Source: a virus
IMG/VR virus record: IMGVR_UViG_3300045988_092566
Coordinates: 1 to 40,436 of that record
Direction: 5' to 3' (one strand)
Length of the DNA: 40,436 bases
Part shown: positions 604-40,301 of the stretch, in pieces
Position numbering within the stretch: position 1 is the first letter of the stretch
How the letters are laid out: every line of letters begins with the position of its first letter
Program-made: the position numbers and the translations under genes
The notes under the pieces: generated by a model
What the model was told of the DNA's origin: nothing
Databases searched by the model: none
What the model saw: only the letters and a program-made list of their open reading frames with translations

Positions 604-1845
604 TCAGTGCAAGACCTGACCGGGATAAATCGTGTACGGGGCACGCAACCCGTTGCGTTGGGCCGCGGCCGGCCAGCTGGAACCGTAGATCTTCCACAGG
701 CTCTCGCCCGCGGTGACCACGTGCGAGGTGGTTACGACATGGGCACCGACGCTGGAAGCGACCGAACCGCCGTAGCAGACTTGCTGCCCGGGCCAGATGC
801 GGTTGATGTTGCCGCTGGGCACGCTCCACGCGCTGGCCGGCGTGCGGCCGGTACGGCTGGCGATCGCGCCCATGGTGTCGCCGCTGGACACAACGACGCA
901 ATACGAGCCGGCATTGCCAGATGGCGTCGTGACGCCACTGCCGGACAGTCGCCGGTTAACTATGTCCATGACCGCCGCATAGTTGGATCCGAGCGCCTGT
1001 CGTCGTGCGGGATCGTTGCCGAAGTCGCCGCGGATGGTGCGCGTGGCCAGGGCATTCAGATCGACCGTCGGAGCTGTCGTGGGCTGTGGCGTCGGCTTGA
1101 CGTTCGGCAGGCTCGCCGTGCCCTTGTCGTCGGGGTTCGCGTACTTGCGCCAAGCCGCACGGTCGCCGCGGAACCTGTTCAGGTCGAGGCGCCCGGACCA
1201 GCCGCTGAGACTGCCGTTGCTCGTGTACTGACGCATGACCTCGCCGCGTGCGCCGAGGTTCCACGGTGCGGTCTGGTATCCGGTGACCATGTTCGTGGCG
1301 TACTGTGCGATCCAGATGCCGCAGTTCAGCTCGGTCTCCATGCCGGCGACCTGCCAGTACCCGGAGTCCATCGTGTAGATGATGGGGTTCACCCCGGTCA
1401 GGCGTTTGACCTCGCGCGCCCAGCGGCGCGGCCACTGCTTGTCGCCCCAGGCCGTGTTGTCCTGCGCCTCCCAGTCGAGGATCAGGACGCTCTTGTGCAC
1501 GTATCCGCGCACGTTATCGACGAAGAACCGGGCCTCAGCCTTCGGGTTGTCGCCGCGCGCGTAATGGTAGACGCCCGTCTCCTTGCCGCTGTTGATGGCA
1601 CCGGCGAGCTGACGGTTAGCGTCGGTGTTAACGCCGTTGGACAGGCATCCGCCGTACACGCCGCCGGAACCCCACGTGGTGCCGACGATGACGAAATCGG
1701 CCGGCACGCTCGCGGTGTCGATGCCGCACTGCCAGTTCGAAATGTCGTATCCGTCCATGTCGGCCATCGCCGCCGGGGCGAACGCCATGGAGGCTGCGAC
1801 GGCGAGCGCGGTCAGCGGCGTGCGCCAGCGTCGGCGGGGTTTCAT
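604..1845 (-). CDS. Endolysin: GH25 muramidase with N-terminal Sec-type signal peptide and C-terminal LysM-like repeats
   Basis: It carries the DGYDISNWQ GH25 motif. The N-terminus is MKPRRRWRTPLTALAVAASMAFAPAAMA. The C-terminus has two LysM-like units (GDTMGAIA..., GESLWKIY...). An alternative TTG start at 1878 would add 11 aa. Confidence 0.85.
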   Translation of the reverse strand: MKPRRRWRTPLTALAVAASMAFAPAAMADMDGYDISNWQCGIDTASVPADFVIVGTTWGSGGVYGGCLSNGVNTDANRQLAGAINSGKETGVYHYARGDNPKAEARFFVDNVRGYVHKSVLILDWEAQDNTAWGDKQWPRRWAREVKRLTGVNPIIYTMDSGYWQVAGMETELNCGIWIAQYATNMVTGYQTAPWNLGARGEVMRQYTSNGSLSGWSGRLDLNRFRGDRAAWRKYANPDDKGTASLPNVKPTPQPTTAPTVDLNALATRTIRGDFGNDPARRQALGSNYAAVMDIVNRRLSGSGVTTPSGNAGSYCVVVSSGDTMGAIASRTGRTPASAWSVPSGNINRIWPGQQVCYGGSVASSVGAHVVTTSHVVTAGESLWKIYGSSWPAAAQRNGLRAPYTIYPGQVLH

Positions 1846-1855
1846 GTGCTTCGGT

Positions 1856-1890
1856 TTGCCTTTGTTGAGGATACTCAAATTCCTCTCCTT
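1856..1890 (-). repeat. 35-bp conserved element, copy 1 (SD plus TTGAG-N4-CTCAA mini-palindrome) upstream of the endolysin
   Basis: TTGCCTTTGTTGAGGATACTCAAATTCCTCTCCTT differs at 1 position from 2425-2459. Confidence 0.8.
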
Positions 1891-1916
1891 CCTGCCCCAA
1901 GTCAGGGGCAAATAGA

Positions 1917-1942
1917 AAGGCCACCCCGTGGGGGGTGGCCTT
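1917..1942. terminator. GC-rich hairpin (AAGGCCACCCC/GGGGTGGCCTT), possible intrinsic terminator
   Basis: An 11-bp perfect stem with a 4-nt loop has T-rich flanks on both strands. It lies between the small TM ORF and the endolysin. Confidence 0.5.
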
Positions 1943-1961
1943 GGTTTTGAAAAAATCGATG

Positions 1962-2048
1962 TCAGCGCATGTGCGCGCCGTGATTGAACATGAGGATGAG
2001 CGCAAGCAATACCAGGTACGCTACGATTGCGATCATGAGACGTGTCAT
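1962..2048 (-). CDS. 28-aa hydrophobic peptide (MTRLMIAIVAYLVLLALILMFNHGAHMR), possible lysis accessory
   Basis: A GGAGG lies 7 nt upstream of the ATG at 2048. An ATGA overlap links it to the stop of the upstream TM protein gene. It has a single TM helix. Confidence 0.4.
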   Translation of the reverse strand: MTRLMIAIVAYLVLLALILMFNHGAHMR

Positions 2049-2359
2049 TGCTGGTCCTCCTGTATGTGCGCGTCGAGGATGTCGTTGCGCATTTCCGTGC
2101 CGACGCCATTGCCTCCCAGACCGCTGTAGGCGCGGTATATGCGTTCAGCGGTCCGTTTCGCCTCGACGGTGCATACGCCGCCGTTGTCCACCATCTGCCG
2201 ATGCAACAGTTCAAGCTTGCAGAACAGCAGCTCCTTCACGCCCTCGTACAGCGGGTCGCGCCTGTTGTCGATTTTGTCGAGCACCCACGGCACGAAAGCC
2301 CCGAAACCACCGGAACCGATGATGGCGACGACAATCGTGATGAGATATTCCTCATTCAT
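2045..2359 (-). CDS. Holin-like or lysis-associated membrane protein (104 aa, one N-terminal TM)
   Basis: The RBS GGGAGGAATCGAAAGG precedes the ATG at 2359. A TM segment (YLITIVVAIIGSGGFGAFVPWVL) is followed by a charged soluble tail. The gene sits at the head of the lysis cassette. Confidence 0.5.
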   Translation of the reverse strand: MNEEYLITIVVAIIGSGGFGAFVPWVLDKIDNRRDPLYEGVKELLFCKLELLHRQMVDNGGVCTVEAKRTAERIYRAYSGLGGNGVGTEMRNDILDAHIQEDQQ

Positions 2360-2902: not shown

Positions 2903-3226
2903 TTAGTAGGGTGCGGTGTCGGCGGTGAAGAAGCCCGGAAGCCCCCCCCCCACGACGTAAATGTCGTATGCGGGTTTCGATTCAATGGCGATATCACGGC
3001 AGGTGGTCTTGTCCTGCACCTGCACCAGCATGCTCGTGGTCTTGTCCAAATGGAATTCCGCCTCATTCAGCGTCTCGCCTAATGTGGCGGAACAGTTCCA
3101 GTCGGTGTCGCCCACGAAGAGTATGCCGCCCGTCTTGCTGACATGCCAGTCACCCTTCGGGAGCATGCCGAACCGGCGCACCGTATCCGTCAGCACAGGG
3201 TTCGAATAGGCGAGTTTCCGTCTCAT
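2903..3226 (-). CDS. Hypothetical protein (107 aa) containing a G10 tract near its 3' end
   Basis: An ATGA overlap links it to the stop of the 550-aa fibre gene. The homopolymer at 2942-2951 encodes the GGG in ...YVVGGGLPGFF. Confidence 0.55.
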   Translation of the reverse strand: MRRKLAYSNPVLTDTVRRFGMLPKGDWHVSKTGGILFVGDTDWNCSATLGETLNEAEFHLDKTTSMLVQVQDKTTCRDIAIESKPAYDIYVVGGGLPGFFTADTAPY

Positions 3227-4875
3227 TCCAATTCCTTTCCGGTCAATAGTGTCCAGCTGTCTATGGTTTTCCGCCAGATTTCGCGTGGCCTGTCCACGAG
3301 GAAGAACATCGAATTGGCGTCCGCGGCGGCCGTACCGTACGCGCCGGTGTAATATCGCAGGCCATTGTGGAGTTTTTCGGTGCGCACCCACAGGTCGCCG
3401 ACCACTCCGTCCGGCTGGTCGGCCTGAAGGTATACGTGCTTGGTGACAGTGGTGCCACCGGCTTTGATGGTGACTTCCGCTGGATGGTAGCAGTCCGATT
3501 TGAGCGCGGCCAATAGCGTGGTCGTATTGCTCACCCACGTCAGGGTCTGGCCGGCCAACGTGGCAACCGTGGTGTCCCGTGACGCCATGGACGCGTCCAC
3601 GTCCGACGTGTGCCCGTCCAGGTACGCGGCCACCGGTTTGAGCCTGATGGTCGGCTGGTCGGGAATCTCATACGGGCCGGCCACGACGAAGTCCACGGGT
3701 TCCATCCACAGGTCCGTCCGCATCGTGGCCGCGGGGAACCATTTGCGTAATTGCTCAAGGGTCTTTGCGGCTTCGCTGGCGGCGGCCGAAGCGGTATCGG
3801 CATGTTCCGCGCTGACCGTCTCAGACGTTTTCGCCGCGGTCTCGCTGGCCTTGGCCTTATCGGCCGATGTGGCCGCATCATGCGCTTTGCCGGTGGCCGT
3901 GCTGGCGGAGGTATTGGCTGATTGGGCGGCCGTCTCCGCGTTGGCCGCGCTGGCATTGGCCGCGGCCTCGCTGTCTTTTGCCTTCGCCGCCGAATCGGAT
4001 GCCGCCGTCGCCGACCGTGCCGCCGCGCTCTCGGATGCCGATGCCGCCGACTTGGATTGTCCGGCGCTCTCGGCCGACTTCGCGGAGGCGGATTCGCTCG
4101 CCTGCGCCGCAGTGGCGGATCGCCCCGCCGCCTGGGCCTTGTCGGCGGCCGTCCGCATGGCGTCTTCGGCGGCCTGCCTTGCCGCCTCGGCCCTGGCCTG
4201 CGCGTCGATCGCGGCGTCGGCCTTGCCGCCCGCTGTCTTGGCCGCGGTGTCGGCGGTAGCCGCGTCACGCCCGACCTGTGCGGCTGTCTCCGTGATCCGC
4301 GCCGCAATGGTCTTGGCCTCGCCGATCAGCCCCTGCGCCGTGGTCTCGGCTTCGTGCGCGAGACTGGCGCTGGACGCCGCCGCCGTCTGCGATGCGAGTG
4401 CCCTCACGGCCGCATCCGCCGCCTTCGCACTCTCCTGCCCCGCCACTCCTTCGCTGGCCTTCGCCGCCTGCGCGGACCGTTCGTCGCGGGCCACCTTGTC
4501 GTCGATCGAATCGATCTGATCCAGAGCGGACTGGGCGGCTCGGGTCACGGTCTCCCACGCGGCCACCGTCTCCGAGCTCGGATCGAGCGTGGCGGGATCC
4601 ACATCCGCCAGCCCTGAGTACTCCGCCGACTCCTTGTCGGGCACCTCGACGTATCGCACGATTCCGCCCGCCACCAGCTCGCTCACCCTCCACACCCACT
4701 GGGTGGTCGAGGGCATCACCTCCGCGGTGGCCTCGCCTTTGTCGAGCTTGACGGTCTGCGCGACCGGCAGGCGGATCGCGTCACGCACCGTCACGCGTCT
4801 TGTGGGCACGAGGCTCACGCTGCCGTCCAGACCGCACCCCTCGGCGTCGGTCAGGTGGAAATGCACCAATGTCAT
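3223..4875 (-). CDS. Tail fibre or minor tail protein with a long Ala-rich coiled-coil stalk (550 aa)
   Basis: It has a globular N-terminus, about 270 aa of A/S/T/E/K-rich repeats, and a globular C-terminus. Other frames in this region are shadow ORFs. Confidence 0.7.
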   Translation of the reverse strand: MTLVHFHLTDAEGCGLDGSVSLVPTRRVTVRDAIRLPVAQTVKLDKGEATAEVMPSTTQWVWRVSELVAGGIVRYVEVPDKESAEYSGLADVDPATLDPSSETVAAWETVTRAAQSALDQIDSIDDKVARDERSAQAAKASEGVAGQESAKAADAAVRALASQTAAASSASLAHEAETTAQGLIGEAKTIAARITETAAQVGRDAATADTAAKTAGGKADAAIDAQARAEAARQAAEDAMRTAADKAQAAGRSATAAQASESASAKSAESAGQSKSAASASESAAARSATAASDSAAKAKDSEAAANASAANAETAAQSANTSASTATGKAHDAATSADKAKASETAAKTSETVSAEHADTASAAASEAAKTLEQLRKWFPAATMRTDLWMEPVDFVVAGPYEIPDQPTIRLKPVAAYLDGHTSDVDASMASRDTTVATLAGQTLTWVSNTTTLLAALKSDCYHPAEVTIKAGGTTVTKHVYLQADQPDGVVGDLWVRTEKLHNGLRYYTGAYGTAAADANSMFFLVDRPREIWRKTIDSWTLLTGKELE

Positions 4876-6744: not shown

Positions 6745-6745
6745 T

Positions 6746-7041: not shown

Positions 7042-7057
7042 GGGTTACGGAATGCTA
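7042..7057 (+). repeat. Recombination site S4
   Basis: GGGTTACGGAATGCTA. The CTA provides the TAG stop of cassette C3. Confidence 0.85.
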
Positions 7058-7353: not shown

Positions 7354-7369
7354 GGGTTACGGAAAGCTA
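7354..7369 (+). repeat. Recombination site S3
   Basis: GGGTTACGGAAAGCTA. Confidence 0.85.
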
Positions 7370-7373
7370 GAAA

Positions 7374-7657
7374 TCATGGGATTGGGAAACAAAGCGTGCC
7401 GACGCAATCCTGATTGCTGCCAACGTTTCCCATGTTCGCCACTCGGATAGTTCCATCAGCTCTGGCCGTGAGGCTTCGCGCCGTTTGCCCATTTGATACA
7501 AGGCAGACAGTCGACAAGTCAACGATGGGACGATACCAGGACGCGAGCTTTACCGGACATTCAACAGCATCCCAACTGCCCGAACCGATTTTCCCACTGA
7601 ACTTGATCAAAATCATCCTGCCGTTACGCATGATGATCCAATTGGAATCCTGGTACA
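7374..7657 (-). other. Silent RBP C-terminal cassette C2 (about 95 aa), paralogous to C1
   Basis: In frame from the S2 junction: SVTLYQDSNWIIMRNGRMILIKFSGKIGSGSWD...CFPIP*. Confidence 0.8.
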
Positions 7658-7673
7658 GGGTTACGGAAAACTA
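7658..7673 (+). repeat. Recombination site S2
   Basis: GGGTTACGGAAAACTA. Confidence 0.85.
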
Positions 7674-7676
7674 TCC

Positions 7677-7960
7677 TCATGGGATCGGATAGCAGAGCGA
7701 GCCGACGCAACCCTGATTGCTGCCAGCGGCTCCCATGTTCGCGCATCGGATGGTTCCGTTCGGGTTGACGACAAGCATTCTCGCCGTCTGCCCGTTCGAC
7801 ACGCACACCATCGCATTGACCTCGATAGGCGGGCGCAGTTCGGCGGGCAACACGTATTCGCATTGCACTGAATCCCAACTGCCACTACCGATATTGCCGG
7901 AATACTTGACGAGCATCATCATGCCGGTGCGGACGACCGCGAAGCCCTTCGCGTTATACA
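7677..7960 (-). other. Silent RBP C-terminal cassette C1 (about 95 aa)
   Basis: In frame from the S1 junction: SVTLYNAKGFAVVRTGMMMLVKYSGNIGSGSWD...CYPIP*. Confidence 0.8.
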
Positions 7961-7976
7961 GGGTTACGGAAAACTA
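7961..7976 (+). repeat. Recombination site S1
   Basis: GGGTTACGGAAAACTA. The CTA is the TAG stop of the currently expressed RBP. Confidence 0.85.
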
Positions 7977-8801
7977 CTGCTTCGCGTCGAAGACGTGGAC
8001 AGTCACGGCGATGCGATAGCTCAGCGATGTGCCGCTGGCGTTCCATGCGACAATCTGAAATCCTTTTGCCGAATGACTGTTCGTAATCATCGAGATGTTG
8101 TTGAACGACGGCACTTTGTTTTTAGCGTCATTCATCAACTGTAATTCGACGGAGTATGAATCCCAGTTTGCCGCTTCGATCGGCAGCTTGATGTCTATTG
8201 ACGTGTTCGTGTTCGGCTTGAAGATCATGGACGCGACGCGGTAGGCGTCATAGCCTCTAGGCCGCGCGACCACGACCCATTCACCCGACTGGGTTACGGA
8301 ATCCCACAGCTTCGACATGGGAGGCAGCTGTTTGATGAGCATGACCGGCGTGCCGGGCGTGATCCCGCTGATCGGGATGCGGGCGATCGGGATCCACACC
8401 GTGCCGGAGGCCGAGTGGATGCTGCCCGACGGGACGGTCGGATCGGCGGCCGTTCCGGTGTTTGGCGTGCCTTTGAGTACGGCGATGGCAGCGGTCTCGA
8501 TGTTCTGACCGTTCCGTGTGTATTTGAGGCAGACGAGGTCGTTGCGGTTCCGGCCGCTCACGCCGCTTTCGATGGTCGCGGTCTCGGCCTCGGTGACGCG
8601 CGCGTATCGTCCTTCGACCACGAGGTTGAGGACGGGGATCAGCGCGTGATTCGCATCCTGCATGGTCACCGTAGGGAAAGTGCCGTCGCTGCCCTGCAGC
8701 AGGTAGCTTCCGTTGCCGATGATTCCGGCTTGCATGGCGCCCATGTCGCCGCTGGTGATGTGCGGTGTGCCGCCCTTGCCTGTGATGAGCGTGGTGGTCA
8801 T
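7974..8801 (-). CDS. Tail receptor-binding protein: constant N-terminal 168 aa fused at site S0 to the currently active C-terminal cassette C0
   Basis: The 275-aa ORF lies directly after the Tal gene and a small Zn-ribbon gene. The internal site at 8291-8306 encodes WDSVTQ. The C-terminal 105 aa occupies the same position as the silent cassettes. Confidence 0.8.
   Translation of the reverse strand: MTTTLITGKGGTPHITSGDMGAMQAGIIGNGSYLLQGSDGTFPTVTMQDANHALIPVLNLVVEGRYARVTEAETATIESGVSGRNRNDLVCLKYTRNGQNIETAAIAVLKGTPNTGTAADPTVPSGSIHSASGTVWIPIARIPISGITPGTPVMLIKQLPPMSKLWDSVTQSGEWVVVARPRGYDAYRVASMIFKPNTNTSIDIKLPIEAANWDSYSVELQLMNDAKNKVPSFNNISMITNSHSAKGFQIVAWNASGTSLSYRIAVTVHVFDAKQ
8291..8306 (+). repeat. 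Recombination site S0, inside the expressed RBP gene
   Basis: GGGTTACGGAATCCCA shares the 11-bp core GGGTTACGGAA with S1-S5. Confidence 0.85.
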
Positions 8802-17167: not shown

Positions 17168-18049
17168 TCAGGCGGTGAGCAGGACGAAGCGGTTGATGTC
17201 GCGGATGCGGAAGCCGACCTCGATTTCGATTCGCACTGCGAACATGTTGTGTTCCCACAGGTTGATCTGCTTGCCGTCGATGGTGACGGTGGCCTGGTCG
17301 GAGATGCTGGTCTGCAGGCCCTCGACGCTGCCCCATGCGGCGGATGCGAATTCGCCGCCGACGCCGATGATCTCCTTGGCGGGGGTTTCTCCGGTGACCG
17401 CGGGGACGTGCACGCCCTTGGAGATCTGCACAGGATTGCCGAGGATGGTGGACACGTCGGACGAGCCGGTGCCGTCGAGGAACAGTGGTCGTCCGTTGTT
17501 GTCGGTGGCCTGTCGCAGGAGGCTTCGGCCCTGGGTGGACATTGCCCATCCGTCGAGGGTGCCATCCGCCGCGGATACGGAGTCGTCGGCCGCGTTCAGG
17601 TTCTTCCACACGTCTTGACCGAGGCTGATCTTCTTTGCGGTCTTCAATGTGTCGAAGTCCGAGCCCGGAGCGTCAACCAATCCCATGATGGTCTTGTCGA
17701 AGGTGCGCGCGATAGCGCCCGGCCCCTTGGCGACCACTTGGTCGTAGAGGGCGCCGAAGTCGCGCTTGAACTGGTTGGAGAACGGCATGATGACCGCGAT
17801 GGTGTACGGCAGCATGTCCTTCTTGCCAAAGCCGACGCCGCTCTTGGGTTTCTCCGCTCCTTCATCGACCCACGCGGCCTCGGGGTCGCCGGTGATGATC
17901 GGCACGCGTGCGCCGTTGCCTGGAAGCTTCATCTCGGGTACGAGCTGCATGAACGCGCTCTGGTATTTCGCGGTCTGCCAGATCTCCGCCTGGGTTTCTG
18001 GAGTGAGGTCGAGGCCATTGCTTTTTCGGGTCATTGACGGATCTGCCAT
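17168..18049 (-). CDS. Major capsid protein, HK97-fold type (293 aa)
   Basis: It follows the scaffold gene. The size and sequence character fit (…GDPEAAWVDEGAEKP…). Confidence 0.85.
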   Translation of the reverse strand: MADPSMTRKSNGLDLTPETQAEIWQTAKYQSAFMQLVPEMKLPGNGARVPIITGDPEAAWVDEGAEKPKSGVGFGKKDMLPYTIAVIMPFSNQFKRDFGALYDQVVAKGPGAIARTFDKTIMGLVDAPGSDFDTLKTAKKISLGQDVWKNLNAADDSVSAADGTLDGWAMSTQGRSLLRQATDNNGRPLFLDGTGSSDVSTILGNPVQISKGVHVPAVTGETPAKEIIGVGGEFASAAWGSVEGLQTSISDQATVTIDGKQINLWEHNMFAVRIEIEVGFRIRDINRFVLLTA

Positions 18050-18083
18050 GACTCATCCTTTCATTAAGTGGCTGATGGTTGGG

Positions 18084-18602
18084 TTACAGGAGCGTGTTCT
18101 TCATGGCGTTGGCGAAGTCCTCGCGGCCGGAATGTTTCGGCTTGGCCTGTCCGGTGCGGGCGCTCTGCTCCGCGACGATTCCGCGGGATCTCATGCCGGC
18201 GAACACCTTCATGAGTCTTTCGGCGTAGTCGCCGATCTGCTTCTCATCGTCGCCGACGAGGACGCTTGGATCGCTGATGCCGTGTTTGGCCGCGACCTCG
18301 GCACGGATTGCGGAGAGCTCTTTCTCATGTTCGGCCTGTTTGGCTTCGTTTTTAAGCTTCTCGTTCTCTTCGAGCGCTTTGGAGAGCTTCGATTCGAGGT
18401 CGGCGGTGTGACCGGCCTTCTCCTTGAGTTCCTCATAGTCGCTTTTCCTGCCGCGTTCCCTGCCGAGGCGTTCGTTGATGATGCGGTCGACTTCCTCCTG
18501 CGTGAAGGTCTTCGGCTTCGCGTCGTTCACGTCCTTCGTGGTCGGAGCGTGCTGTCCCGGCTCCTGCTGGCCGTCAGCGTCGGTCTGATTGTCTTCTGCC
18601 AT
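18084..18602 (-). CDS. Scaffolding protein (172 aa)
   Basis: The protein is highly charged and coiled-coil-like (EELKEKAGHTADLESKLSKALEENEKLKNEAKQ). The RBS AAAAGGAGC is present. The gene lies upstream of the capsid gene. Confidence 0.75.
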   Translation of the reverse strand: MAEDNQTDADGQQEPGQHAPTTKDVNDAKPKTFTQEEVDRIINERLGRERGRKSDYEELKEKAGHTADLESKLSKALEENEKLKNEAKQAEHEKELSAIRAEVAAKHGISDPSVLVGDDEKQIGDYAERLMKVFAGMRSRGIVAEQSARTGQAKPKHSGREDFANAMKNTLL

Positions 18603-18724
18603 GATTGGTAGCTCCTTTTGTTTGGTTTTCCACGCCTGACGCCGGCGAGTGGGCGGCCATTCTTGTTGGTTTCGCGCATGGCTGCGCCCCGCCCCATCGC
18701 TGGGGTGTGAAAGGTAAAAGAAAA

Positions 18725-18749
18725 GCCACCACGTTTTCGACGTGATGGC
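18725..18749 (-). terminator. Intrinsic terminator after the MuF-ART and small ORF pair
   Basis: On the minus strand the hairpin GCCATCACGT-CGAAA-ACGTGGTGGC is followed by CTTTTCTTTT. Confidence 0.6.
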
Positions 18750-18759
18750 TTTCTGGGAT

Positions 18760-18999
18760 TCAGAGATTTCCAAGCGCTTTTCTTCGCGCGTATTCGGACC
18801 TGAGTTCGTCGGTCGACACATAGTCGCCGACGGACCAGCGCTTCTTTCCTTCGTTCCTGACCCATTCATATTCGTCCTGCGGCATGGAGATGTCGCCATA
18901 CTTGCGTTTGATTTCCGCAAGATGGCGCTCATCGGTGACTTCCTTCAAATCACCGGGCATAAACGTGAAACGGTCGGAACGATCCATAGGCTCAATCAT
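18760..18999 (-). CDS. Small protein (79 aa), candidate immunity partner of the ART domain
   Basis: An ATGA start/stop overlap links it to the MuF-ART gene. It lies in a visibly lower-GC patch shared with the ART domain. Confidence 0.55.
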   Translation of the reverse strand: MIEPMDRSDRFTFMPGDLKEVTDERHLAEIKRKYGDISMPQDEYEWVRNEGKKRWSVGDYVSTDELRSEYARRKALGNL

Positions 19000-20411
19000 A
19001 GCAGTCTCAGATAAACAATCGGCCTGCCGTCGGATGCTCCAAGCCCTTCGAAACGAAGAGTCCTTCCTCTCGGCAGAAGAATTTCGTATTCTCCCGGATG
19101 CTGAGTGATCGGCTCCACATACACGCCGGCGCTTCCCGGCGGTACCAGGATTCTTGTGGCGATGCGGTCTTCCCCATCAACGTCAATGCCTCCCTCCTTG
19201 ATGCTGGTGGCCATGTAGCCGATGTGTTCGAAGGTGCGACCGGTATTCAAATCGAAAAGCGACTCCATGTCGTTGACGTGGAACGTCGACAACCGCATCT
19301 GCCTGTCGACCGTGAAACGTTCTCGGGTGATATGGTCGGATATCGCTTCGTCGATGCATTCGACCTGATGGATGACGGCTTTTGACGGGTTTCGTCCGCT
19401 GAACAGGTAGCCGTTGATACTTTTATAGCTGTCTCCGGTCCAATCCATCAAAGCCGCGATCTTCTCGTCGTTGGAGAATCTATCTCCAGGCATCCTGACG
19501 CTGTAATCCGACAATCTCGATAGTTCGGAAGCACTGATCGGAATCGATTTGCCGCTCCATCGAATCGTCGGTTGGGCAGTCACGCCATCATTGACCTCAT
19601 CGTGATAGATGCGTCTCAATTGGGCTAGCGTGTCACGCCAGTCGCCGTCATCGCCGGCCGCGGCCTTGGCTGCCTGGTACATTTCACGATACTTGTCCGG
19701 ATCGTATCCTTTGAGTTTGCTGCTGCCCCAGCTTGGCACGATGTCGCAATCGCAGTCCGCATGGTATTGCATCTGCCGTCCGGCGGTGTCCCCGCTCAGG
19801 TAGGCGAATCCACGCGAGGCGAGCATAAGGCAGAACGCGCATGTCTTAGCCCCTCGTGGGACGCGAGCCCAGCGAGGCTTGGTGGGGTCGTTGGCCACGG
19901 CCCTCTGCATGGTCAGCCGTCCGACCGTCTGAATCAGATTCTGCACGTATTCCAGCGCCTGCTCCTCGTCGGCGAACGTTGGCCACAGGTCGTCGATGGT
20001 TCTTCCGGCGTTATTGTGCACGACGCCGTTCTCATCTGGAATGACGTCCTTGTAATGCAATCCCATGAAGTCGGTGTTGTTGAAACCGCCTTCCATCTGC
20101 CAGACCGCACGGTCGGCGGTGATGGTCGGCGGATCGTATTCCGGCATATCGATTCCGCCGTATTGCGCCCATAGGTCGCGCACATGGCTGTAGTAGTCGG
20201 ACGCGAGTTTGTTGGCCGCGTCAGCATACCGGTTGATCTCCGCTTTGATGAGTTCCTGGCTTTCACCGTCCCAGACAAGTCCTGAAACGCTGTTGCCTGC
20301 CTCCTTCTGCAAGCGGCTCATGGTGTCCGTGTAATCCTCGTACAGGTCGTTGAGGTCGAGTTCAAGCCTTCTGTGTTGTTCCGGAGGCAGGTTCAGACTG
20401 TTCAGGCTCAT
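18996..20411 (-). CDS. MuF/SPP1 gp7-like head morphogenesis protein fused to a C-terminal ADP-ribosyltransferase toxin domain (471 aa)
   Basis: The N-terminal part has the MuF-type Cys/His cluster (CAFCLMLASRGF...YHADCDCDIVP). The C-terminal part has ART motifs: YKSINGYLF, GYMATS (an STS variant) and GEYEILLPRG (ExE). Confidence 0.8.
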   Translation of the reverse strand: MSLNSLNLPPEQHRRLELDLNDLYEDYTDTMSRLQKEAGNSVSGLVWDGESQELIKAEINRYADAANKLASDYYSHVRDLWAQYGGIDMPEYDPPTITADRAVWQMEGGFNNTDFMGLHYKDVIPDENGVVHNNAGRTIDDLWPTFADEEQALEYVQNLIQTVGRLTMQRAVANDPTKPRWARVPRGAKTCAFCLMLASRGFAYLSGDTAGRQMQYHADCDCDIVPSWGSSKLKGYDPDKYREMYQAAKAAAGDDGDWRDTLAQLRRIYHDEVNDGVTAQPTIRWSGKSIPISASELSRLSDYSVRMPGDRFSNDEKIAALMDWTGDSYKSINGYLFSGRNPSKAVIHQVECIDEAISDHITRERFTVDRQMRLSTFHVNDMESLFDLNTGRTFEHIGYMATSIKEGGIDVDGEDRIATRILVPPGSAGVYVEPITQHPGEYEILLPRGRTLRFEGLGASDGRPIVYLRLL

Positions 20412-22056
20412 TTCCGCCGCCTTCCGGTAGTTTGAGGCTGACCGGCGTCATGCCGGTGAATTCAATGCCTTTCAGTCCAAGCATCGATGCCGCGGATTCC
20501 GGTGTCACCCCGGCTCTGATCGCTACTCCCAGTGCGTCGAAGCTGTCCTTCAGCCCCCCCCCCGCAACAGTTGATTGCGTGGAAGCGTCGGTCTGGCGTT
20601 CCCCGTCGTCCTGCGTCTGCTCAGTCTGTTGGCGCATGCCGCGAATCTGGTCGAGGACCTGTCCGGCTTGAGCCTTGCGCTGGTCGGCCTTCAAGCGGAC
20701 GATCTCGCTTCTGCTCAATCCGGCGCGGGTCATGCCGACCTCGCTGTTGGCGAACGAGTCGATGCTGCCGGCGAGTTTGCTGAACGCGTCGGCGCTCATG
20801 GAGCTTGACGGAGTGTTGGGGTTCTTCCAGTCGACCTGCAGTTTCATCAGATCATCGTCTGACACCGATGGATCCTGTATGCGCGCCACGAGGCGTGCCG
20901 CCTGCAGGATCGATTCGCCGAAATCACGGTCGCAGTGGCGAGCCTCGATAATCAGGTCCTCGCGTTGCGCCTCGGTCGCGTCCGCTGACGTCGGATTCGC
21001 GTCCGATACGATGCCGAGCGAGCTGGCGGGAATGTTCATCGCGCTGGCGAACATGGCGGCCCAGCTTTTCAGCATCGTCAGGTGCGGATCCATGCTGGAT
21101 GCGGCCAGTTGGGTCACTGTCGGCGAATCACCGTCCGCGTCCTTGCTGATCATGTTGTAGCGGCCCATGTAGAGTTTGAGCGCGGCGTCCGCGCTCAAGG
21201 ACGCGAGCTCGTCGCTGGTGCCCATGAGCAGGATTTTCGGGAATGCGTAGAATTCGGCGTTCGCCTCGGCGCGCACGATGGTGCGGTTCGCGCCGTCGAT
21301 GATGTTCATCGCGTCATGGCTGATGCGGGAGCGTCCGAATGGTTTGACTTCGGTGGCTTTGTAGGCGAGGCGGAACACGCTGCATTCGCCGTTCACGGTG
21401 GGTTGTGATCCTTGCACGTACCATGTGCCGAGACTGCGGGACACGCTGATGTTGCGCGTCGGCATGTAGAGCACGAGTCCGATGGCCTCGTTGTCGTTGT
21501 TCACGTCGGTTATGGCCATGCATGCCTTGACGCGTCGGTTCGGGTAGTCCCAGATCGCTGCCGAGCTTTCCGCGGTGTGGGTGCGGATGAGAGGCCTGTT
21601 CTCCGCATCTTGGATGACGCTGAGGAACGAGCAGCCGTGAATGAGTGCCGTCTGTATGGCCTGCTGAAGGACGCTGGTGAAGCCGATTCTGCTCATGAAG
21701 TCCTGTAGTTGGAACGGATCATCGACACCAGGCGAGACGAATCCCTCGAATACGCAAAGCTCGGCGAGCATGTCCACCGCCTTGCGTGCCCATCCCAATG
21801 GCGTGTAGTGGTCCTTGATGGACTGTGGAACCATGAGACCGAAGTCGACCAGCGGCTCTTTCGATTCGTAGTATGCGGTGAGTTTCCGATTGCGGCTCGC
21901 ATGACGTGTCCACACTTCGGCGAGCTCTGCGAGCAGTTCGTTCTCTTGGTTTGTAAGCCCGTCGATGCTGGTGGGCACAACCAGTTTCGTCAGCGCCACC
22001 GATCCTCCGGACGGCCGCCAGCTATCCGGAACGTTTGTCATCTGGATGTCACCCAT
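20362..22056 (-). CDS. Portal protein (564 aa)
   Basis: It lies immediately after TerL. The RBS GGAGGAATCTAA precedes the ATG. The size is typical. It contains a G10 tract at 20554-20563. Confidence 0.85.
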   Translation of the reverse strand: MGDIQMTNVPDSWRPSGGSVALTKLVVPTSIDGLTNQENELLAELAEVWTRHASRNRKLTAYYESKEPLVDFGLMVPQSIKDHYTPLGWARKAVDMLAELCVFEGFVSPGVDDPFQLQDFMSRIGFTSVLQQAIQTALIHGCSFLSVIQDAENRPLIRTHTAESSAAIWDYPNRRVKACMAITDVNNDNEAIGLVLYMPTRNISVSRSLGTWYVQGSQPTVNGECSVFRLAYKATEVKPFGRSRISHDAMNIIDGANRTIVRAEANAEFYAFPKILLMGTSDELASLSADAALKLYMGRYNMISKDADGDSPTVTQLAASSMDPHLTMLKSWAAMFASAMNIPASSLGIVSDANPTSADATEAQREDLIIEARHCDRDFGESILQAARLVARIQDPSVSDDDLMKLQVDWKNPNTPSSSMSADAFSKLAGSIDSFANSEVGMTRAGLSRSEIVRLKADQRKAQAGQVLDQIRGMRQQTEQTQDDGERQTDASTQSTVAGGGLKDSFDALGVAIRAGVTPESAASMLGLKGIEFTGMTPVSLKLPEGGGNEPEQSEPASGTTQKA

Positions 22057-23496
22057 TTAGATTCCTCCGATGGTCTGTCGTCTTCCGGGATGTCGTTTTG
22101 TCGTGCACGCCCCGTACAGGGCGATCGTGGTTGATACGAGCGGCGTTATGTCGATATCCGAGCCGAGCTTGTTCCATGCGATCGCGCCGGACTGTCCCAA
22201 TGGACGCGTGGTCGCGCCCTTGACGGCTGCGGCCAGCTGCGGCTGGTATTCGTCCGGCGGGTGCTTGAGCGTTCCGGCTTTGAGCATGTCGAGGAATCGG
22301 CCGCATGCGCGGCCCATCTCCTGCATGTTCGTCACGGTGACCTTCACGTGCGCGGCCTTCAGTTCGGGCAGCAGGCTCATTGCCGGGGACTGCGCGTCGA
22401 TGACCACGCTGGCGGTCTTCGGCCAGCGTTCGGCAAGCCAGTCCACGGCCCACATGGTTCCCGCCTGCCGCGCGTCCTTGATGTTCGCCATCTGGATGAC
22501 GGCCGACCCGTCCTCGTACCGCAATGCGGCGCCGATGGTCAGCACGCTCCTGTCGGGCGGCATGTCGATGCCGAAGCTCACCGTGCCGCCTTCGGGCACG
22601 TCGTCGGTCTCGGCGGCCTTCCACAGGTCGGGGCTGATGGCGTACGCGGTGGCGGTCTCATCCCAGATGCCGAGCGCCTCACGGCGGAACGAATCATCGG
22701 CGAGGAGATTGCGCATGCGCAGTATCGCCTGCTCGCTGGTGCGTTTCGGATACGACGGGTTCGCTTTCGCCCACGCGTTCCGGTCGTCCGGATCGCAGTC
22801 TCGGTCCGCGCCGAGCTCCACGTAGAGCATGTCGTCCGACTTGCCGGACAACGCGGTGGAACGTTTCTCCTCGAACGCCTCGCACTGGTCGCCCGGCTTC
22901 GGCGGGTTGCCCATGAACACGATCAACGGGTTCGGACTCGTGTTCACGATCGGAATCAGGTTGTCCAAAGCCTTGATGGTGAGGATTTGAGCCTCGTCGA
23001 ACACCTCGATGTCTGCGGAGTGCAGTCCTCGGCCGAAACCGTTCTCGCGGGCGCCGAACATGATGCGGCTGCCGTTGGTGAAACGGATCTCCTGCTGGCC
23101 GTTCGCTCGACGCACGTTCCGCACGTACCTGGACAGTTTCGGATTGCGTGTCAGGTCGCACATGTCGGCGAACGTCTCGTCGGAGGTGCGCGTGTGGTGC
23201 GCGGTCCAGATGACCAATGTCCCGGCGCGTCCGGCGCACAGGATGAACATCGCGGTGCCGACCGTGAACGTCTTGCCGATCTGCCTGCAGCTGGACAGTA
23301 CCGCCCCACCGGAGCCACAGGCGTATTTGCCGTCCGCGCGTTTGGCGAACAGCAGGTAGAGGAAGCCCTTCTGCCACAGGTCGTAGTGGATTCCGGCCTT
23401 GGCCGCCGCGTTGTTGATCAGGTTGAAGTCGCTCGACGTGACGTCTTCCGGCTGCACGAGCCGTTGGGCGATCTCAGACAATCGACGCTCCGACAT
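22057..23496 (-). CDS. terL: Terminase large subunit (479 aa)
   Basis: A Walker A-like motif (SCRQIGKTF), a Walker B motif (IEVFDEAQ) and a C-terminal nuclease region are present. Confidence 0.9.
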   Translation of the reverse strand: MSERRLSEIAQRLVQPEDVTSSDFNLINNAAAKAGIHYDLWQKGFLYLLFAKRADGKYACGSGGAVLSSCRQIGKTFTVGTAMFILCAGRAGTLVIWTAHHTRTSDETFADMCDLTRNPKLSRYVRNVRRANGQQEIRFTNGSRIMFGARENGFGRGLHSADIEVFDEAQILTIKALDNLIPIVNTSPNPLIVFMGNPPKPGDQCEAFEEKRSTALSGKSDDMLYVELGADRDCDPDDRNAWAKANPSYPKRTSEQAILRMRNLLADDSFRREALGIWDETATAYAISPDLWKAAETDDVPEGGTVSFGIDMPPDRSVLTIGAALRYEDGSAVIQMANIKDARQAGTMWAVDWLAERWPKTASVVIDAQSPAMSLLPELKAAHVKVTVTNMQEMGRACGRFLDMLKAGTLKHPPDEYQPQLAAAVKGATTRPLGQSGAIAWNKLGSDIDITPLVSTTIALYGACTTKRHPGRRQTIGGI

Positions 23497-39017: not shown

Positions 39018-40301
39018 GTGGGAAGAAGCGCCATGAAAGTGACCATTGATGATCTGTGGCTCAAGAATGACGATGATGGCAATCCGCCGAGTCGCGCGGC
39101 CAAACGCTCTTTGGCGAACTCACGCGATCCGATGAAGGCCAATGTGCCTGAGAAGTGGCGTAAAAGCCGTTATGGGGTCGGGATGCGCTGGCGTTGTCAT
39201 TGGACCATCGTCAAGGACGGTAGACGTGTGCAGAGGGTGAAGCAGTTCGCCAGGCTCGCCGAAGCGCAGGAATATGCCGCGGCCATGGAGGACGACATCA
39301 GGCGGGGACGCTACCGCGATCCTCGTCAGGAGCTTCGTGTCCTGGATGATGTGGCCGGCGAATGGCTCGCGTCGAAGGTTGATTTGAAACCCGGCACCGC
39401 GGGCCGGTATGCGAGGGAGCTGCGCCTGTACATCCTGCCCAAATGGGGTGGCATGACGTTGCGTGAGCTGCGCCCTGACATGCTGCAGGAGTGGGTCGGC
39501 CAGCTCATGGACGGTGGTTATCCGGCCGCGTTGCCGGACGGGCGTGATTCGAAGCCGCTGAGTGCGAGAAGCATCCGCAATATCATGAAAGTCGTCCTCA
39601 AGGGCATCTTTGACTACGCCGTCTCGAACGGGTGGATCGGTGAGAATCCTGTGGACAGGGTCACCGTGCCGAAGATCGTCTCCGACGACGACATGGTGTT
39701 CCTCTCGGTCCGCGAGGTCGAGTTGCTCGCGGACGAGGCGGAGAAGATCGGGAAGCCGGTGGACGGTCTGCTGGTCAGATGGCAGGCCTATACGGGATGC
39801 CGCATAGGCGAATCGCTTGCCCTTAAGGTCGGTGACGTGGATGTGGACAGGCGGCGCGCCAGGATAGGCCGCACATGGACTGACGACGGGCACGGCGGCA
39901 GCATGCTCGGCACCCCGAAGAACGGCAAGGCCCGCAACATCGCGATACCACGGTTCCTTATGCCGCAGATCAAGGCGCAGATGGATGGCATGGGTGATGA
40001 CGACTGGCTGTTCCGTGCCACCCGTGGCGGGAACGTCTGGACGAACACGTGGCGGACAAGGATATGGAACAAGGCCGTCAAAGCGGCCGGCATGGAGGAC
40101 GCGGGCGTGACCATACACAGTCTGCGCCACACATACGCGAGCTTCGCGATCGCCCAGGGCGCGGACGTGAAGACCCTGCAGATGCAGCTCGGCCACTCCT
40201 CTCCCAGCATCACATTGAACACCTACACGGCGCTCTGGCCGGAACGATTGGACGACGTGGCCGACGCGATCGGAGCCCTCCGCGAGCGCGAACTCGTGTG
40301 A
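39018..40301 (+). CDS. int: Tyrosine integrase (427 aa from the GTG at 39018; 422 aa from the ATG at 39033)
   Basis: It has an N-terminal SAM-like/arm-binding region and the catalytic motifs TGCRIGE, HSLRHTYAS and GHSSPSITLNTY. It is adjacent to attR and the tRNA. Confidence 0.9.
   Translation: MGRSAMKVTIDDLWLKNDDDGNPPSRAAKRSLANSRDPMKANVPEKWRKSRYGVGMRWRCHWTIVKDGRRVQRVKQFARLAEAQEYAAAMEDDIRRGRYRDPRQELRVLDDVAGEWLASKVDLKPGTAGRYARELRLYILPKWGGMTLRELRPDMLQEWVGQLMDGGYPAALPDGRDSKPLSARSIRNIMKVVLKGIFDYAVSNGWIGENPVDRVTVPKIVSDDDMVFLSVREVELLADEAEKIGKPVDGLLVRWQAYTGCRIGESLALKVGDVDVDRRRARIGRTWTDDGHGGSMLGTPKNGKARNIAIPRFLMPQIKAQMDGMGDDDWLFRATRGGNVWTNTWRTRIWNKAVKAAGMEDAGVTIHSLRHTYASFAIAQGADVKTLQMQLGHSSPSITLNTYTALWPERLDDVADAIGALRERELV

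Follow-up and report, generated by a model that had tools for sequence, protein, structure and literature searches.

The window, i.e., the whole 40,436-nucleotide stretch of the IMG/VR virus record IMGVR_UViG_3300045988_092566, carries in its head module a gene for a protein in which a MuF4/VG15 domain is joined to a predicted ADP-ribosyltransferase (ART) domain, here called MuF4-ART (Table 1). The module is ordered TerL, portal, MuF4-ART, orf79, scaffold and capsid, orf79 being a small open reading frame. The fusion gene lies immediately 3' of the portal gene, the context of the MuF superfamily, and this portal-then-MuF order is the context rule applied by Jamet et al. 2017 (PMC5576092). The same order was found in OY725605.1, in which the counterpart of the scaffolding gene is also annotated, and in the related loci L166–L169.

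The phage is temperate, since an integrase and an endolysin are present, and it is of Bifidobacterium type, probably a gut siphovirus of bifidobacteria. MuF4-ART proteins with 97–98% identity were frequent in metagenomes, with 2,920 member sequences in the cluster defined at 90% identity (P0002), and more than 40 IMG/VR contigs carried MuF4-ART at an identity of at least 96%.

Table 1. Features of the MuF4-ART locus, with coordinates in the window.
Feature	Position	Strand	Basis or detail
Portal gene, directly upstream of MuF4-ART	20362..22056	-	SPP1_portal E 5e-28; phrog_104 E 4.5e-103
MuF4(VG15)-ADP-ribosyltransferase fusion gene	18996..20411	-	ORF, ATG start, 471 aa; VG15 + ADPrib_exo_Tox
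N-terminal module, aa 1-277, MuF4/VG15 head-targeting domain (predicted)	19581..20411	-	Pfam VG15 match aa 14-248
Cys/His cluster C191-x2-C194 ... H217-x2-C220-x-C222	19746..19841	-	Only part aligning with a classical MuF1 profile
Linker, aa 278-312, start of the variable tip	19476..19580	-	Inside the non-homologous cassette
ADP-ribosyltransferase domain (predicted), aa 313-471	18999..19475	-	Pfam PF03496
Catalytic residue R370 (predicted)	19302-19304	-	
A401-T-S403, at the STS position	19203-19211	-	
Catalytic residues E441-Y-E443 (predicted)	19083-19091	-	
Toxin-tip and small-ORF cassette, 829 bp	18752..19580	-	blastn borders vs L170, L003
orf79, 79 aa, candidate cognate immunity protein/inhibitor	18760..18999	-	Start overlaps the toxin stop (ATGA)
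Terminator-like hairpin, 3' edge of the cassette	18711..18753	-	14-bp stem + T-run; pattern scan + sequence
Scaffolding protein gene, head module, downstream neighbour	18084..18602	-	DUF4355 + PHROG scaffolding families; ATG at 18602

The two domains of the fusion protein

The original prediction had described a MuF/gp7-type gene after the portal gene, with a CAFC...HADCDC cluster. Both the position and the motifs were confirmed (CAFC at aa 191–194, HADCDC at aa 217–222), whereas the family proved to be a different one. Pfam Phage_Mu_F (PF04233, 'MuF1') gave no match to MuF4-ART even at E<=1, in a test in which SPP1 gp7 scored 114 bits against PF04233, while VG15 (PF25310) matched MuF4-ART with 140 bits (E 1.3e-40). 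Angel gp4, a MuF4 seed of Jamet et al., was matched by the same VG15 model (112 bits, E 5e-32), and BLASTP directly aligned its CxxC...HxxCxC core with that of MuF4-ART. On these sequence matches, the N-domain is placed within the MuF superfamily, in its MuF4/VG15 branch. Across 82 homologues, C191, C194, H217 and C222 were invariant and C220 was conserved in at least 90%, and we infer that the Cys/His cluster binds metal.

A relationship to classical MuF domains was also sought with hhalign. Thirteen VG15 domains gave no signal against the single sequence of SPP1 gp7; when this sequence was replaced by a MuF1 profile built from 28 domains of MuF1-ART proteins, a VG15 profile of 73 sequences aligned with it at E 1.4e-4, but with a probability of only 52% and over 49 columns, limited to the Cys/His core of about 50 residues (query 178–228). 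SPP1 gp7 reaches the procapsid via the portal (PMC6316719). Since the kinship of VG15 with gp7 is, at such a probability, a remote one, portal binding by MuF4-ART is an extrapolation across families, and the portal is its presumed docking partner.

The AlphaFold2 (AF2) model of the N-domain was confident (pLDDT 92, pTM 0.89) and gave no match in the PDB at E<=0.001, proteases included. In BFVD, it matched minor capsid proteins of MuF-like type, the best at E 1.4e-11, one of the matches being named 'ADP-ribosyltransferase domain and MuF-like fusion protein'; by Foldseek, 'Minor capsid protein 2' was matched at E 8e-8, but MuF1-type 'head morphogenesis' proteins only at E 0.02–0.09. In the full-length model, confidence fell after aa 270, and aa 269–312 showed little regular secondary structure except for a short helix at aa 294–300.

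With regard to the C-terminal part, the proposal of a C3/VIP2-type ART was borne out by several searches. YKSINGYLF (aa 329–337) and GEYEILLPRG (aa 440–449) were both present, and ADPrib_exo_Tox (PF03496), the second family named in the original prediction besides the unmatched Phage_Mu_F, covered aa 313–455 and scored 74.6 bits (E 8.7e-21), the curated gathering threshold being 23.4. In a phmmer search of the PDB, VIP2, CDTa, certhrax, iota and C3 were matched at E 1e-7 to 1e-4. The structure prediction agreed, the AF2 model of the ART domain (pLDDT about 85–93) matching both C3-like and VIP2-like ARTs by Foldseek, namely certhrax, Plx2A, C3bot1, CDTa and VIP2, at E of about 3e-11 to 1e-9 and prob 1.0, with TM (target) values of 0.64–0.70 for single-domain targets. 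From sequence and model together, the C-terminal module is predicted to be a mono-ADP-ribosyltransferase of C3/VIP2 fold and R-S-E type, with the Arg and the Glu-x-Glu intact.

At two positions, the catalytic motifs nevertheless depart from the mART signature published for the CT/C2/C3 group, [YFL]-R-x(27,60)-[YF]-x-S-T-[SQT]-x(32,78)-[QE]-x-E (Fieldhouse et al., as given in PMC7764402). An aromatic-Arg region had been read in FTVDRQMR (aa 366–373); this did not hold, as the residue before R370 is Asp (D369) in place of Y, F or L. GYMATS (aa 398–403) had been placed at the STS position, and the alignments with VIP2 did put R370, A401-T-S403 and E441-x-E443 on the VIP2 Arg, STS and ExE, respectively, although the residues are A-T-S and not S-T-S, A401 standing for the first Ser. 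The remaining parts (R370, Y399-x, T402-S403 and E441-x-E443) were found, their spacings being 28 and 37 residues. Since D369 and A401 depart from the pattern, the activity could be weak or altered.

In an alignment of 205 ART domains from remote relatives, the combination R|STS|ExE was by far the most frequent and ATS was rare. Within the family, R370 and E443 were invariant in 20 members, and G398, Y399 and A401 were nearly so across members only 35–50% identical; A-[T/C]-S is a stable trait of this ART family and not a one-off lesion. A QxE variant also occurs among the relatives, e.g., in the B. cuniculi protein P0035. A word-index search for the isolated ART domain retrieved only 4 proteins and was replaced by an exhaustive search of representatives, in which, over 1.84 billion proteins, the nearest ART-domain relatives were phage MuF fusions, both VG15-ART and Phage_Mu_F-ART, with the related ART domains sometimes in tandem.

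The exchangeable cassette and orf79

Homology to relatives with other tips ended at aa 277 (nt 19581). In a blastn comparison with the EndoU-type locus L170, the segments 20425..19581 (84%) and 18751..17614 (80%) aligned with no homology between them, which set the borders of the cassette at 19580/19581 and 18751/18752; locus L003 gave the same 5' limit. Relatives with flanks about 85% identical carried an EndoU tip in place of the ART, and more distant ones carried Gln-deamidase, CdiA_C-like or unknown tips. In line with a mosaic structure, the homologue P0003 was about 97% identical over aa 1–239 and about 50% identical thereafter. The domain swapping that the original prediction had suspected from base composition is thus directly supported by the cassette borders and by this mosaic identity. 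The lower GC content of the C-terminal part is itself real but modest: aa 281–471 had GC 0.538 and GC3 0.644, compared to 0.586 and 0.729 for aa 1–280, and the neighbouring genes had GC 0.60–0.64. The 821-nt stretch 18760–19580, within the cassette, had GC 0.533 against a mean of 0.608 (sd 0.040) for windows of the same size, which places it in the lowest 3.6% of the 40-kb sequence, and the synonymous diversity of the cassette was 4 times below that of the N-module.

Clustering of the tips gave five large groups, i.e., ART, a group including the Gln_amidase type, EndoU_bacteria, CdiA_C-like and an unknown type. A constant N-domain with unrelated alternative C-terminal tips joined at aa 277 is a mark of polymorphic toxins, and a small downstream gene co-varying with the tip is another, here provided by orf79. 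The ART tip and orf79 form a single recombining cassette that alternates with other tips on the same N-domain. The earlier placement of the gene in the known polymorphic MuF-toxin class of temperate phages consequently stands, with at least five tip families and a co-varying small ORF.

No match to orf79 was found in Pfam, PHROG or NCBIfam. The gene was intact in all 34 of the distinct close relatives, with a dN/dS of 0.036, and the ART had a dN/dS of 0.13–0.14; both are under purifying selection. An HMM of the orf79 family matched 3' of 65 of the 67 ART tips and of none of the 79 tips outside the ART group (four groups together), figures that overstate independence because many of the counted loci are near-identical; the orf79 table comprised about 18 distinct sequences from roughly a dozen named species. 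EndoU and tail-cluster-1 tips each had a small-ORF family of their own, and no such family was found for the remaining two tip groups. An orphan copy of orf79 was present in L164, a chromosome, behind a different toxin/small-ORF pair. This orphan adjoins a CRISPR-Cas locus.

Translation of orf79 is probably coupled to that of the toxin gene. A scan for sigma-70-type promoters, looking for one that would serve orf79 from within the ART coding region but not tuned to bifidobacteria, found none in 18000–21000. By analogy with characterised pairs, orf79 would most likely be a stoichiometric inhibitor ('immunity' protein); a role as ADP-ribosylhydrolase is unlikely, given the insufficient size of the protein and the lack of any recognisable domain. 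In the interval of the window that separates orf79 from the scaffold gene, neither ARAGORN nor Rfam detected a tRNA or structured RNA, and the number of terminator-like sites in the region was not above chance in the pattern scan. A tRNA had been suspected 3' of orf79 from T-arm-like translations in related loci; this signal corresponded to a tRNA-Tyr confined to those loci.

Proposed role and alternative explanations

We consider it probable, by analogy with studied systems, that MuF4-ART is a MuF-family polymorphic toxin (effector) that would be delivered by the capsid and paired with orf79 as its inhibitor. As in the case of SPP1 gp7, the MuF4/VG15 domain would bind the portal and thereby bring a few protein copies into the procapsid, and orf79 would silence the enzyme in the virion-producing cell and possibly also in lysogens. 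Like T4 Alt, the enzyme would then enter the new host alongside the DNA, and it would modify host proteins, resulting in takeover, or in killing or kin discrimination; from its Glu-x-Glu, the acceptor is predicted to be an arginine of a target in the bacterial cytoplasm. For MuF toxins, the pairing with immunity proteins encoded downstream has been validated by experiment in the Apk2 type (PMC12226406). The strong terminator-like hairpin between orf79 and the scaffold gene, in a late operon, was counted against this explanation. To our knowledge, no MuF-fused ART has been tested experimentally.

The same packaging mechanism is shared by a rather unlikely alternative, which differs only in biological purpose: a T4 Alt-like host-takeover or anti-defence effector reprogramming RNA polymerase or other machinery, with orf79 as an assembly-stage chaperone or inhibitor. 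This is how MuF-ART fusions are read by Iyer et al. (PMC9503650), and it agrees with the match to the Alt-like PHROG 802, which is weak and only partial (E 1.4e-4), with the closest ART relatives all being phage head fusions and none of them secreted bacterial toxins, and with the consideration that a phage gains nothing by killing a cell it has newly entered. However, the same N-domain alternates with EndoU, CdiA_C-like and Gln-deamidase tips, which belong to the classical toxins used for killing by CDI, T6SS and T7SS and are not takeover factors; several tip types are each accompanied by a small ORF of their own, a toxin/immunity hallmark; and an orphan orf79 is kept in a chromosome. Since the signature is degenerate, the ART might instead be catalytically dead or repurposed, e.g., for NAD binding or as purely structural cargo, an idea for which A401, D369, the unmatched pattern of PMC7764402 and the rarity of ATS among the remote ART domains speak. 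We judge it improbable, given the conservation of R370, E443, G398, Y399 and A401, the stability of A-[T/C]-S across the family, the dN/dS of the ART and a dedicated partner gene under even stronger constraint.

That the protein is a VIP2-, iota- or C3-like exotoxin aimed at eukaryotes, freed by lysing bifidobacteria and acting on actin or Rho in the gut epithelium, is very improbable. The best solved-structure relatives do modify actin and Rho, and the ExE followed by LLPRG, which we take to resemble iota and C3, was counted in the same direction, but the identity to such toxins is only about 20–26%, the nearest relatives among the 1.84 billion proteins are phage MuF fusions, and the ART is fused to an internal head protein. 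Moreover, neither a signal peptide region nor a binding/translocation component was found in the window, and a cytoplasmic immunity-like gene would be needless if the targets were eukaryotic. It is hardly credible that MuF4-ART is a prohead (head maturation) protease, as the label 'head maturation protease' in OY725605.1, phrog_13257 and phrog_193 would have it, even though no separate protease gene is evident between portal and capsid. No protease family was matched in Pfam or NCBIfam, the confident N-domain model was without a significant solved-structure match, and in BFVD this model lies among minor capsid proteins of MuF-like type; the annotation was rejected. The BFVD list mixes the names 'capsid maturation protease' and 'capsid maturation protease and MuF-like fusion protein', which suggests that the label spread from such protease-MuF fusions.

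Returning to the polymorphic toxin, a broader proposal can be put forward, though only tentatively. It holds that orf79 may found an undescribed family of 75–80-aa inhibitors of C3/VIP2-type ARTs, active against both ExE and QxE phage variants, of which bacteria would keep orphans (e.g., in L164, by CRISPR-Cas) against injected toxin. Immunity would then double as anti-phage defence, and MuF-ART would be a kin-discriminating weapon among gut Bifidobacterium lysogens.

Bifidobacteria are key gut commensals, and the MuF4-ART phage lineage is abundant in human metagenomes. The locus offers a compact test case, with one ART, one 79-aa partner, exact borders and relatives bearing other tips on nearly the same backbone, and it may serve questions of packaging and injection, of the modified target, and of takeover versus competition. 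A propagating annotation error is also corrected, that of the 'head maturation protease' in OY725605.1 and the PHROG families.

Comparison with known systems

MuF4-ART is a clear further example of the described 'MuF polymorphic toxin' class (Jamet 2017; Iyer 2022) and not a new type of system; since it fits an established class, its value is that of a well-defined example and not of a discovery. Jamet et al. 2017 (PMC5576092) described the polymorphic MuF toxins that temperate phages carry, with an emphasis on Firmicutes; ART tips account for 14% of 191 toxins in that paper, which also cites a Bifidobacterium bifidum toxin of the MuF4-EndoU type. MuF4-ART shares with them the position after the portal gene, an N-domain of the MuF superfamily (the same Pfam VG15 as Angel gp4), a variable toxin tip followed by a small ORF, and a temperate phage of the human gut. 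An ART on MuF4 in bifidobacterial phages and the orf79 family are not described in the available text of the paper, and neither Bifidobacterium nor PF03496 occurs in the available part of its supplementary text.

The C3 exoenzymes, VIP2, iota Ia, CDTa, C2I, certhrax and Plx2A share with MuF4-ART the fold, PF03496, the catalytic Arg, an ARTT-loop ExE and a 'Y-x-x-I-N-x-Y-L' helix. They differ in sequence (19–26% identity), and MuF4-ART has a non-aromatic residue before the Arg and Ala for the first Ser of STS; it also appears not to be secreted, has no B component, and stands in an intracellular context with an immunity-like gene.

In T4, a virulent phage, Alt is targeted by a capsid-targeting sequence and not through a MuF/portal-binding domain, and it is processed by the prohead protease; we know of no immunity partner for it. 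According to Iyer et al. (PMC9503650), Alt is an R-S-E type ART in the capsid that is delivered at infection, a likeness that for MuF4-ART would depend on its predicted packaging, and MuF4-ART matches the Alt-like PHROG only weakly and partially. The same text notes that Alt/VIP2-family ARTs are often fused to MuF. The ART and MuF-like fusion of Microbacterium phage Percival (A0A2Z4Q6J5) follows the same two-domain logic, with an N-fold similar to that of MuF4-ART (Foldseek E 3e-6). Unlike MuF4-ART, however, the fusions of actinobacteriophages and of Iyer et al. have at least 678 aa, often with several effector domains, and in the available text (PMC9503650) they are read as injected host-modifying enzymes, with no cognate immunity gene mentioned there; MuF4-ART has a single ART, with A-T-S as its motif, and a small ORF of its own.

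A bacterial parallel, in which an immunity protein is dedicated to a C3-like ART, is the ART-ARH pair of Listeria monocytogenes Lmo0066 (PDB 8za7; structural match at E 1.4e-10, TM (target) 0.70), for which a literature search found no paper; its immunity protein is, by the entry title, an ADP-ribosylhydrolase, and the system is neither phage-borne nor MuF-fused. The Apk2-IapK-Aph1 module of a Streptococcus pneumoniae prophage (PMC12226406) likewise has an enzymatic toxin fused to MuF, with immunity gene(s) behind it. It differs in that Apk2 synthesises (p)ppApp, belongs to another MuF subfamily and has a second, enzymatic immunity protein, and in that it has been experimentally tested, MuF4-ART being known from its sequence. 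IapK binds and thereby inhibits its toxin, and its pairing is largely restricted to the cognate one (PMC12226406), which provides the model proposed for orf79.

The MuF-ART gene and its N-terminal domain

The open reading frame of the MuF-ART fusion and its position after the portal gene, as given in the original prediction, were confirmed (see table), with the portal product matching SPP1_portal (E 5e-28) and phrog_104 (E 4.5e-103). The window, which harbors integrase and endolysin genes, is a temperate phage; its closest public phage record, OY725605.1, encodes a 97.9% identical protein and is 94% identical over 8 kb of DNA. The last 50 nt of the portal ORF are shared with the start of the MuF gene (20362-20411). 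Near-identical relatives have their portal stop at +50, -50 or -138, counted from the MuF ATG, and the portal measures 564 aa in the window versus 501 aa in OY725605.1; its C-terminal tail therefore varies via indels or frameshifts.

Features of the window and of related loci
Feature	Location	Strand	Details
GH25/LysM endolysin gene	604..2214
Minor tail protein gene	3223..4875
Second, short tyrosine recombinase gene	5174-6046	+	290 aa
Low-GC island	6001-8232
Repeats of 17-21 nt	6043-6063; 6725-6745; 7353-7369		first at end of recombinase gene; others inverted, 0.7 and 1.3 kb downstream of it
Major capsid gene	17168..18049		downstream, after scaffold gene
Scaffold gene	18084..18602	-	downstream of orf79
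Terminator-like hairpin	18711-18753	-	14-bp stem, 5-nt loop, T-run
Swapped cassette	18752..19580		829 bp
orf79	18760..18999	-	79-aa ORF downstream of MuF-ART gene
MuF-ART fusion gene	18996..20411	-	471 aa, ATG start
VG15 (PF25310)	aa 14-248
CAFC	aa 191-194
HADCDC	aa 217-222
ADPrib_exo_Tox (PF03496)	aa 313-455
YKSINGYLF	aa 329-337
FTVDRQMR	aa 366-373
GYMATS	aa 398-403
GEYEILLPRG	aa 440-449
Portal gene	20362..22056	-	directly upstream of MuF-ART gene
Large terminase gene	22057..23496		upstream of portal gene
tRNA-Leu (anticodon GAG)	33345-33427	-	inside phage genome (ARAGORN)
Lowest-GC island	36261-38352		GC down to 0.47-0.49; upstream of integrase gene
Integrase gene	39018..40301
MuF homolog in OY725605.1	20832-22247		6001-7416 in locus L001
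tRNA-Tyr(GTA), related prophages	L015 6032-6115; L021 5693-5775; L027 5414-5497; L033 5350-5432
Chromosomal remnant L164	2547-4228		JGI contig Ga0565126_000001, 1.15 Mb
Prophage remnant L170	1704-7055		ENA scaffold_94, 79.7 kb

With regard to the N-terminal domain, the proposed MuF/gp7 type held at the level of the superfamily, the branch being MuF4/VG15, but not for the classical Pfam family. In Pfam searches the protein matched VG15 with an E of 1.3e-40, whereas the Phage_Mu_F model (PF04233), on which SPP1 gp7 scores 114 bits, gave no match even at E<=1. Jamet et al. defined four MuF families, MuF1 (PF04233), MuF2 (PF06152), MuF3 and MuF4, joined by HHsearch, with mycobacteriophage Angel gp4 as the MuF4 seed (PMC5576092). 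Angel gp4 matched the VG15 model (E 5e-32), and its CGFC...HDFCRC core aligned by BLASTP with the CAFC...HADCDC core of the MuF-ART protein; VG15 is therefore in effect MuF4. Comparison of the VG15 profile with a MuF1 profile made from 28 MuF1-ART proteins gave an hhalign E of 1.4e-4, at a probability of only 52%, over query residues 178-228, that is, the Cys/His core. This predicted cluster was indeed present, and across 82 homologs C191, C194, H217 and C222 were invariant and C220 was conserved in at least 90%, so that a putative zinc site can reasonably be placed here.

The AF2 model of aa 1-280 was confident (pLDDT 92, pTM 0.89). Among BFVD entries it matched a 'MuF-like domain protein' of Rothia phage Spartoi (E 1.4e-11), a 'Minor capsid protein 2' (E 8e-8), a 'MuF-like minor capsid protein' of Gordonia phage Volt and the 'ADP-ribosyltransferase domain and MuF-like fusion protein' of Microbacterium phage Percival (E 3e-6), a name in use by actinophage annotators, while MuF1-type 'head morphogenesis' proteins were reached only at E 0.02-0.09. 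The 98% identical gene of OY725605.1 is named 'head maturation protease', with the ART domain unmentioned, and the same name occurs in PHROG families 13257 and 193. No protease family was matched in Pfam or NCBIfam, and no significant neighbor of the N-domain model was found among solved structures, which argues against this label.

The C-terminal ADP-ribosyltransferase domain

The ART domain was matched by PF03496 with 74.6 bits (cut-off 23.4; E 8.7e-21, Pfam); as sequence matches, this one and that to VG15 are far beyond chance. A phmmer search of PDB sequences matched VIP2, certhrax, CDTa, iota Ia and C3 (E 1e-7 to 1e-3), with FTVDR placed on TVYR, GYMATS on GYMSTS and GEYEILL on SEKEILL of VIP2. 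In the full-length AF2 model (mean pLDDT 84; ART part about 85-93), Foldseek matched certhrax, Plx2A, C3bot1, CDTa, VIP2, iota Ia and the Listeria ART Lmo0066, which belongs to an ART-ARH effector/immunity pair, all with probability 1.0; TM was 0.64-0.70 on single-domain targets, at 19-26% identity.

All the C3/VIP2-type motifs originally listed were thus present, but two active-site positions depart from the hallmark: Asp precedes the Arg, and Ala occupies the first Ser position. Accordingly, the published mART pattern [YFL]-R-x(27,60)-[YF]-x-S-T-[SQT]-x(32,78)-[QE]-x-E (PMC7764402) is not matched by this domain. Across 20 aligned family members (35-74% identical), R370 and E443 were invariant and G398, Y399 and A401 nearly so. 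The entire bifidobacterial family shares A-[T/C]-S, a minority form in an alignment of 205 ART domains from remote relatives, in which R|STS|ExE prevails. The first ExE position is Glu in the window and Gln in an orthologue set from other Bifidobacterium species. In C2- and C3-type enzymes, the residue found there is associated with whether Arg or Asn serves as acceptor (PMC7764402), and we infer by analogy an arginine acceptor for the window enzyme.

Pooled pairwise dN/dS estimates from 34 distinct close relatives, not phylogeny-corrected, were 0.13-0.14 for the tip (aa 278-471) and 0.087 for the N-module (aa 1-277), indicating that the ART domain is maintained by selection. In a library of 1.84 billion proteins its closest relatives were VG15-ART or Phage_Mu_F-ART fusions, and 27 of the 145 representatives carried a MuF1 domain. 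A representative search also returned three giant proteins (P0153, P0154 and P0162; 3371-3593 aa) with up to eight separate ART-matching stretches, P0153 additionally with a MuF1-like segment; from their domain matches they look like polyvalent, multi-ART head proteins.

An exchangeable cassette in which the tip co-varies with orf79

Similarity among N-domain homologs ends at about aa 277 (...DGV), and five large tip groups occurred among 158 related loci, drawn from both genomes and viral contigs: ART (67 loci), Gln_amidase (papain-fold toxin 1) plus unknown tips (30), an unknown type (23), EndoU_bacteria (15) and CdiA_C-like (11). One homolog, P0003, was about 97% identical to the MuF-ART protein over aa 1-239 and about 50% beyond. 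In nucleotide comparisons with the EndoU-type relatives L003 and L170, whose flanks are 80-86% identical to the window, homology covered 20425..19581 in both and resumed over 18751..17614 with L170, which delimits the swapped unit. It comprises linker, ART domain and orf79, ends 8 nt past the orf79 stop codon, and coincides with a low-GC block. The predicted domain swapping is borne out by these borders and the mosaic identity of P0003; both the fusion architecture and its cassette nature are, in our view, almost certain. Synonymous diversity was four-fold lower in the cassette than in the N-module (pS 0.030 vs 0.124), as expected of a cassette recently spread across diverged backbones.

The claimed lower GC of the C-terminal part was likewise observed, the drop being modest: 0.538 (GC3 0.644) for aa 281-471 versus 0.586 (0.729) for aa 1-280, with 0.521 (0.625) in orf79 and 0.60-0.64 (0.76-0.85) in flanking head genes. 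Positions 18760-19580 (GC 0.533) ranked among the lowest 3.6% when compared with windows of equal size across the 40-kb sequence (mean 0.608, sd 0.040). Elsewhere, the lowest-GC island, whose ORFs had no Pfam match, is a possible moron or lysogeny-region acquisition. The repeats lie in the other low-GC island, and the recombinase gene is about 300 nt from the minor tail protein gene; judging by this layout, recombinase and inverted repeats look like a DNA-inversion (shufflon-type) system for tail/receptor-binding variation.

The ATG of orf79 lies in an ATGA overlap with the toxin stop codon. Its product had no Pfam, PHROG or NCBIfam match, and its homologs are few, small and unannotated. The ORF was intact in all 34 distinct relatives, at a dN/dS of 0.036. 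An HMM of the family found it downstream of 65/67 ART tips and 0/79 tips of the other four groups, loci which are not independent (about 18 distinct orf79 sequences from roughly a dozen named species). The association persists from 34% to 99% tip identity, with ExE and QxE enzymes alike. EndoU tips and tail-cluster-1 tips have small-ORF families of their own; the remaining two groups yielded no conserved small ORF downstream. These tip-specific ORFs and the five tip groups on a shared N-domain agree with the proposed membership of a polymorphic toxin class.

In the chromosomal remnant L164, adjoining cas4-cas1-cas2 and a CRISPR-like repeat array, a MuF gene that carries a non-ART tip and has decayed (truncation and frameshift) is followed by that tip's own 81-aa ORF and then by an intact orf79 homolog (68% identical), which looks like an immunity-type gene retained as an orphan when its cassette was replaced or displaced. 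L170, flanked by host genes, retains an integrase, a few small ORFs, the scaffold gene and part of the capsid gene (truncated), and its MuF-EndoU/82-aa ORF pair survives in this decayed prophage.

The 3' border of the cassette coincides exactly with a strong hairpin that begins 7 nt past the orf79 stop and lies upstream of the scaffold and capsid genes, within what would be expected to be a continuous late operon. In related prophages with non-ART tips (the Gln-deamidase-containing group and one group of unknown type), a tRNA-Tyr(GTA) lies between cassette and scaffold gene; none is present there in the window, and a relation to nuclease-type tips is pure speculation. A gathering-threshold Rfam scan of the window returned no family, not even tRNA.

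Proposed mechanism and comparison with known systems

We consider it fairly probable, by analogy, that, as the procapsid assembles, the MuF4 domain would dock the fusion on the portal, that orf79, probably translationally coupled to the toxin, would bind and silence the ART in the producing cell, and that the enzyme would exit the capsid with the DNA and ADP-ribosylate an arginine of a cytoplasmic bacterial protein. With only 79 aa and no detectable domain, orf79 is unlikely to be a hydrolase.

As for purpose, the enzyme may serve host takeover or anti-defence, the view of Iyer et al., in line with the expectation that a phage does not harm its new host. Alternatively, it may serve killing and kin discrimination, the view of Jamet et al., in keeping with the private small ORFs of several tips and with the fact that this tip alternates with EndoU, CdiA_C-like and deamidase domains, which are classical killing toxins.

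The proposed mechanism draws on three precedents. SPP1 gp7, a MuF1 protein, binds the portal and thereby enters the procapsid in a few copies; virions without it show reduced infectivity, and the same review considers it probable that lysogenic phages use this mode of entry for toxins joined to gp7-like proteins (PMC6316719). T4 Alt, a head-packaged ART injected with DNA, is the model for the predicted delivery of MuF-ART; according to Iyer et al., Alt/VIP2-family ARTs are often MuF-fused (PMC9503650). The Apk2-type MuF toxin has a tip toxic in E. coli and a downstream neutralizer, IapK, which occludes its active site (PMC12226406), and is our proposed model for ART-orf79. The MuF polymorphic toxin class into which MuF-ART fits is already established, and Jamet et al. 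cite a MuF4-EndoU toxin of B. bifidum (PMC5576092); specific here are the pairing of MuF4 with ART in gut bifidobacterial phages that are abundant, an active site whose D-R / A-T-S signature is non-canonical, a partner family (orf79) that lacks annotation, and a cassette with precisely known borders.
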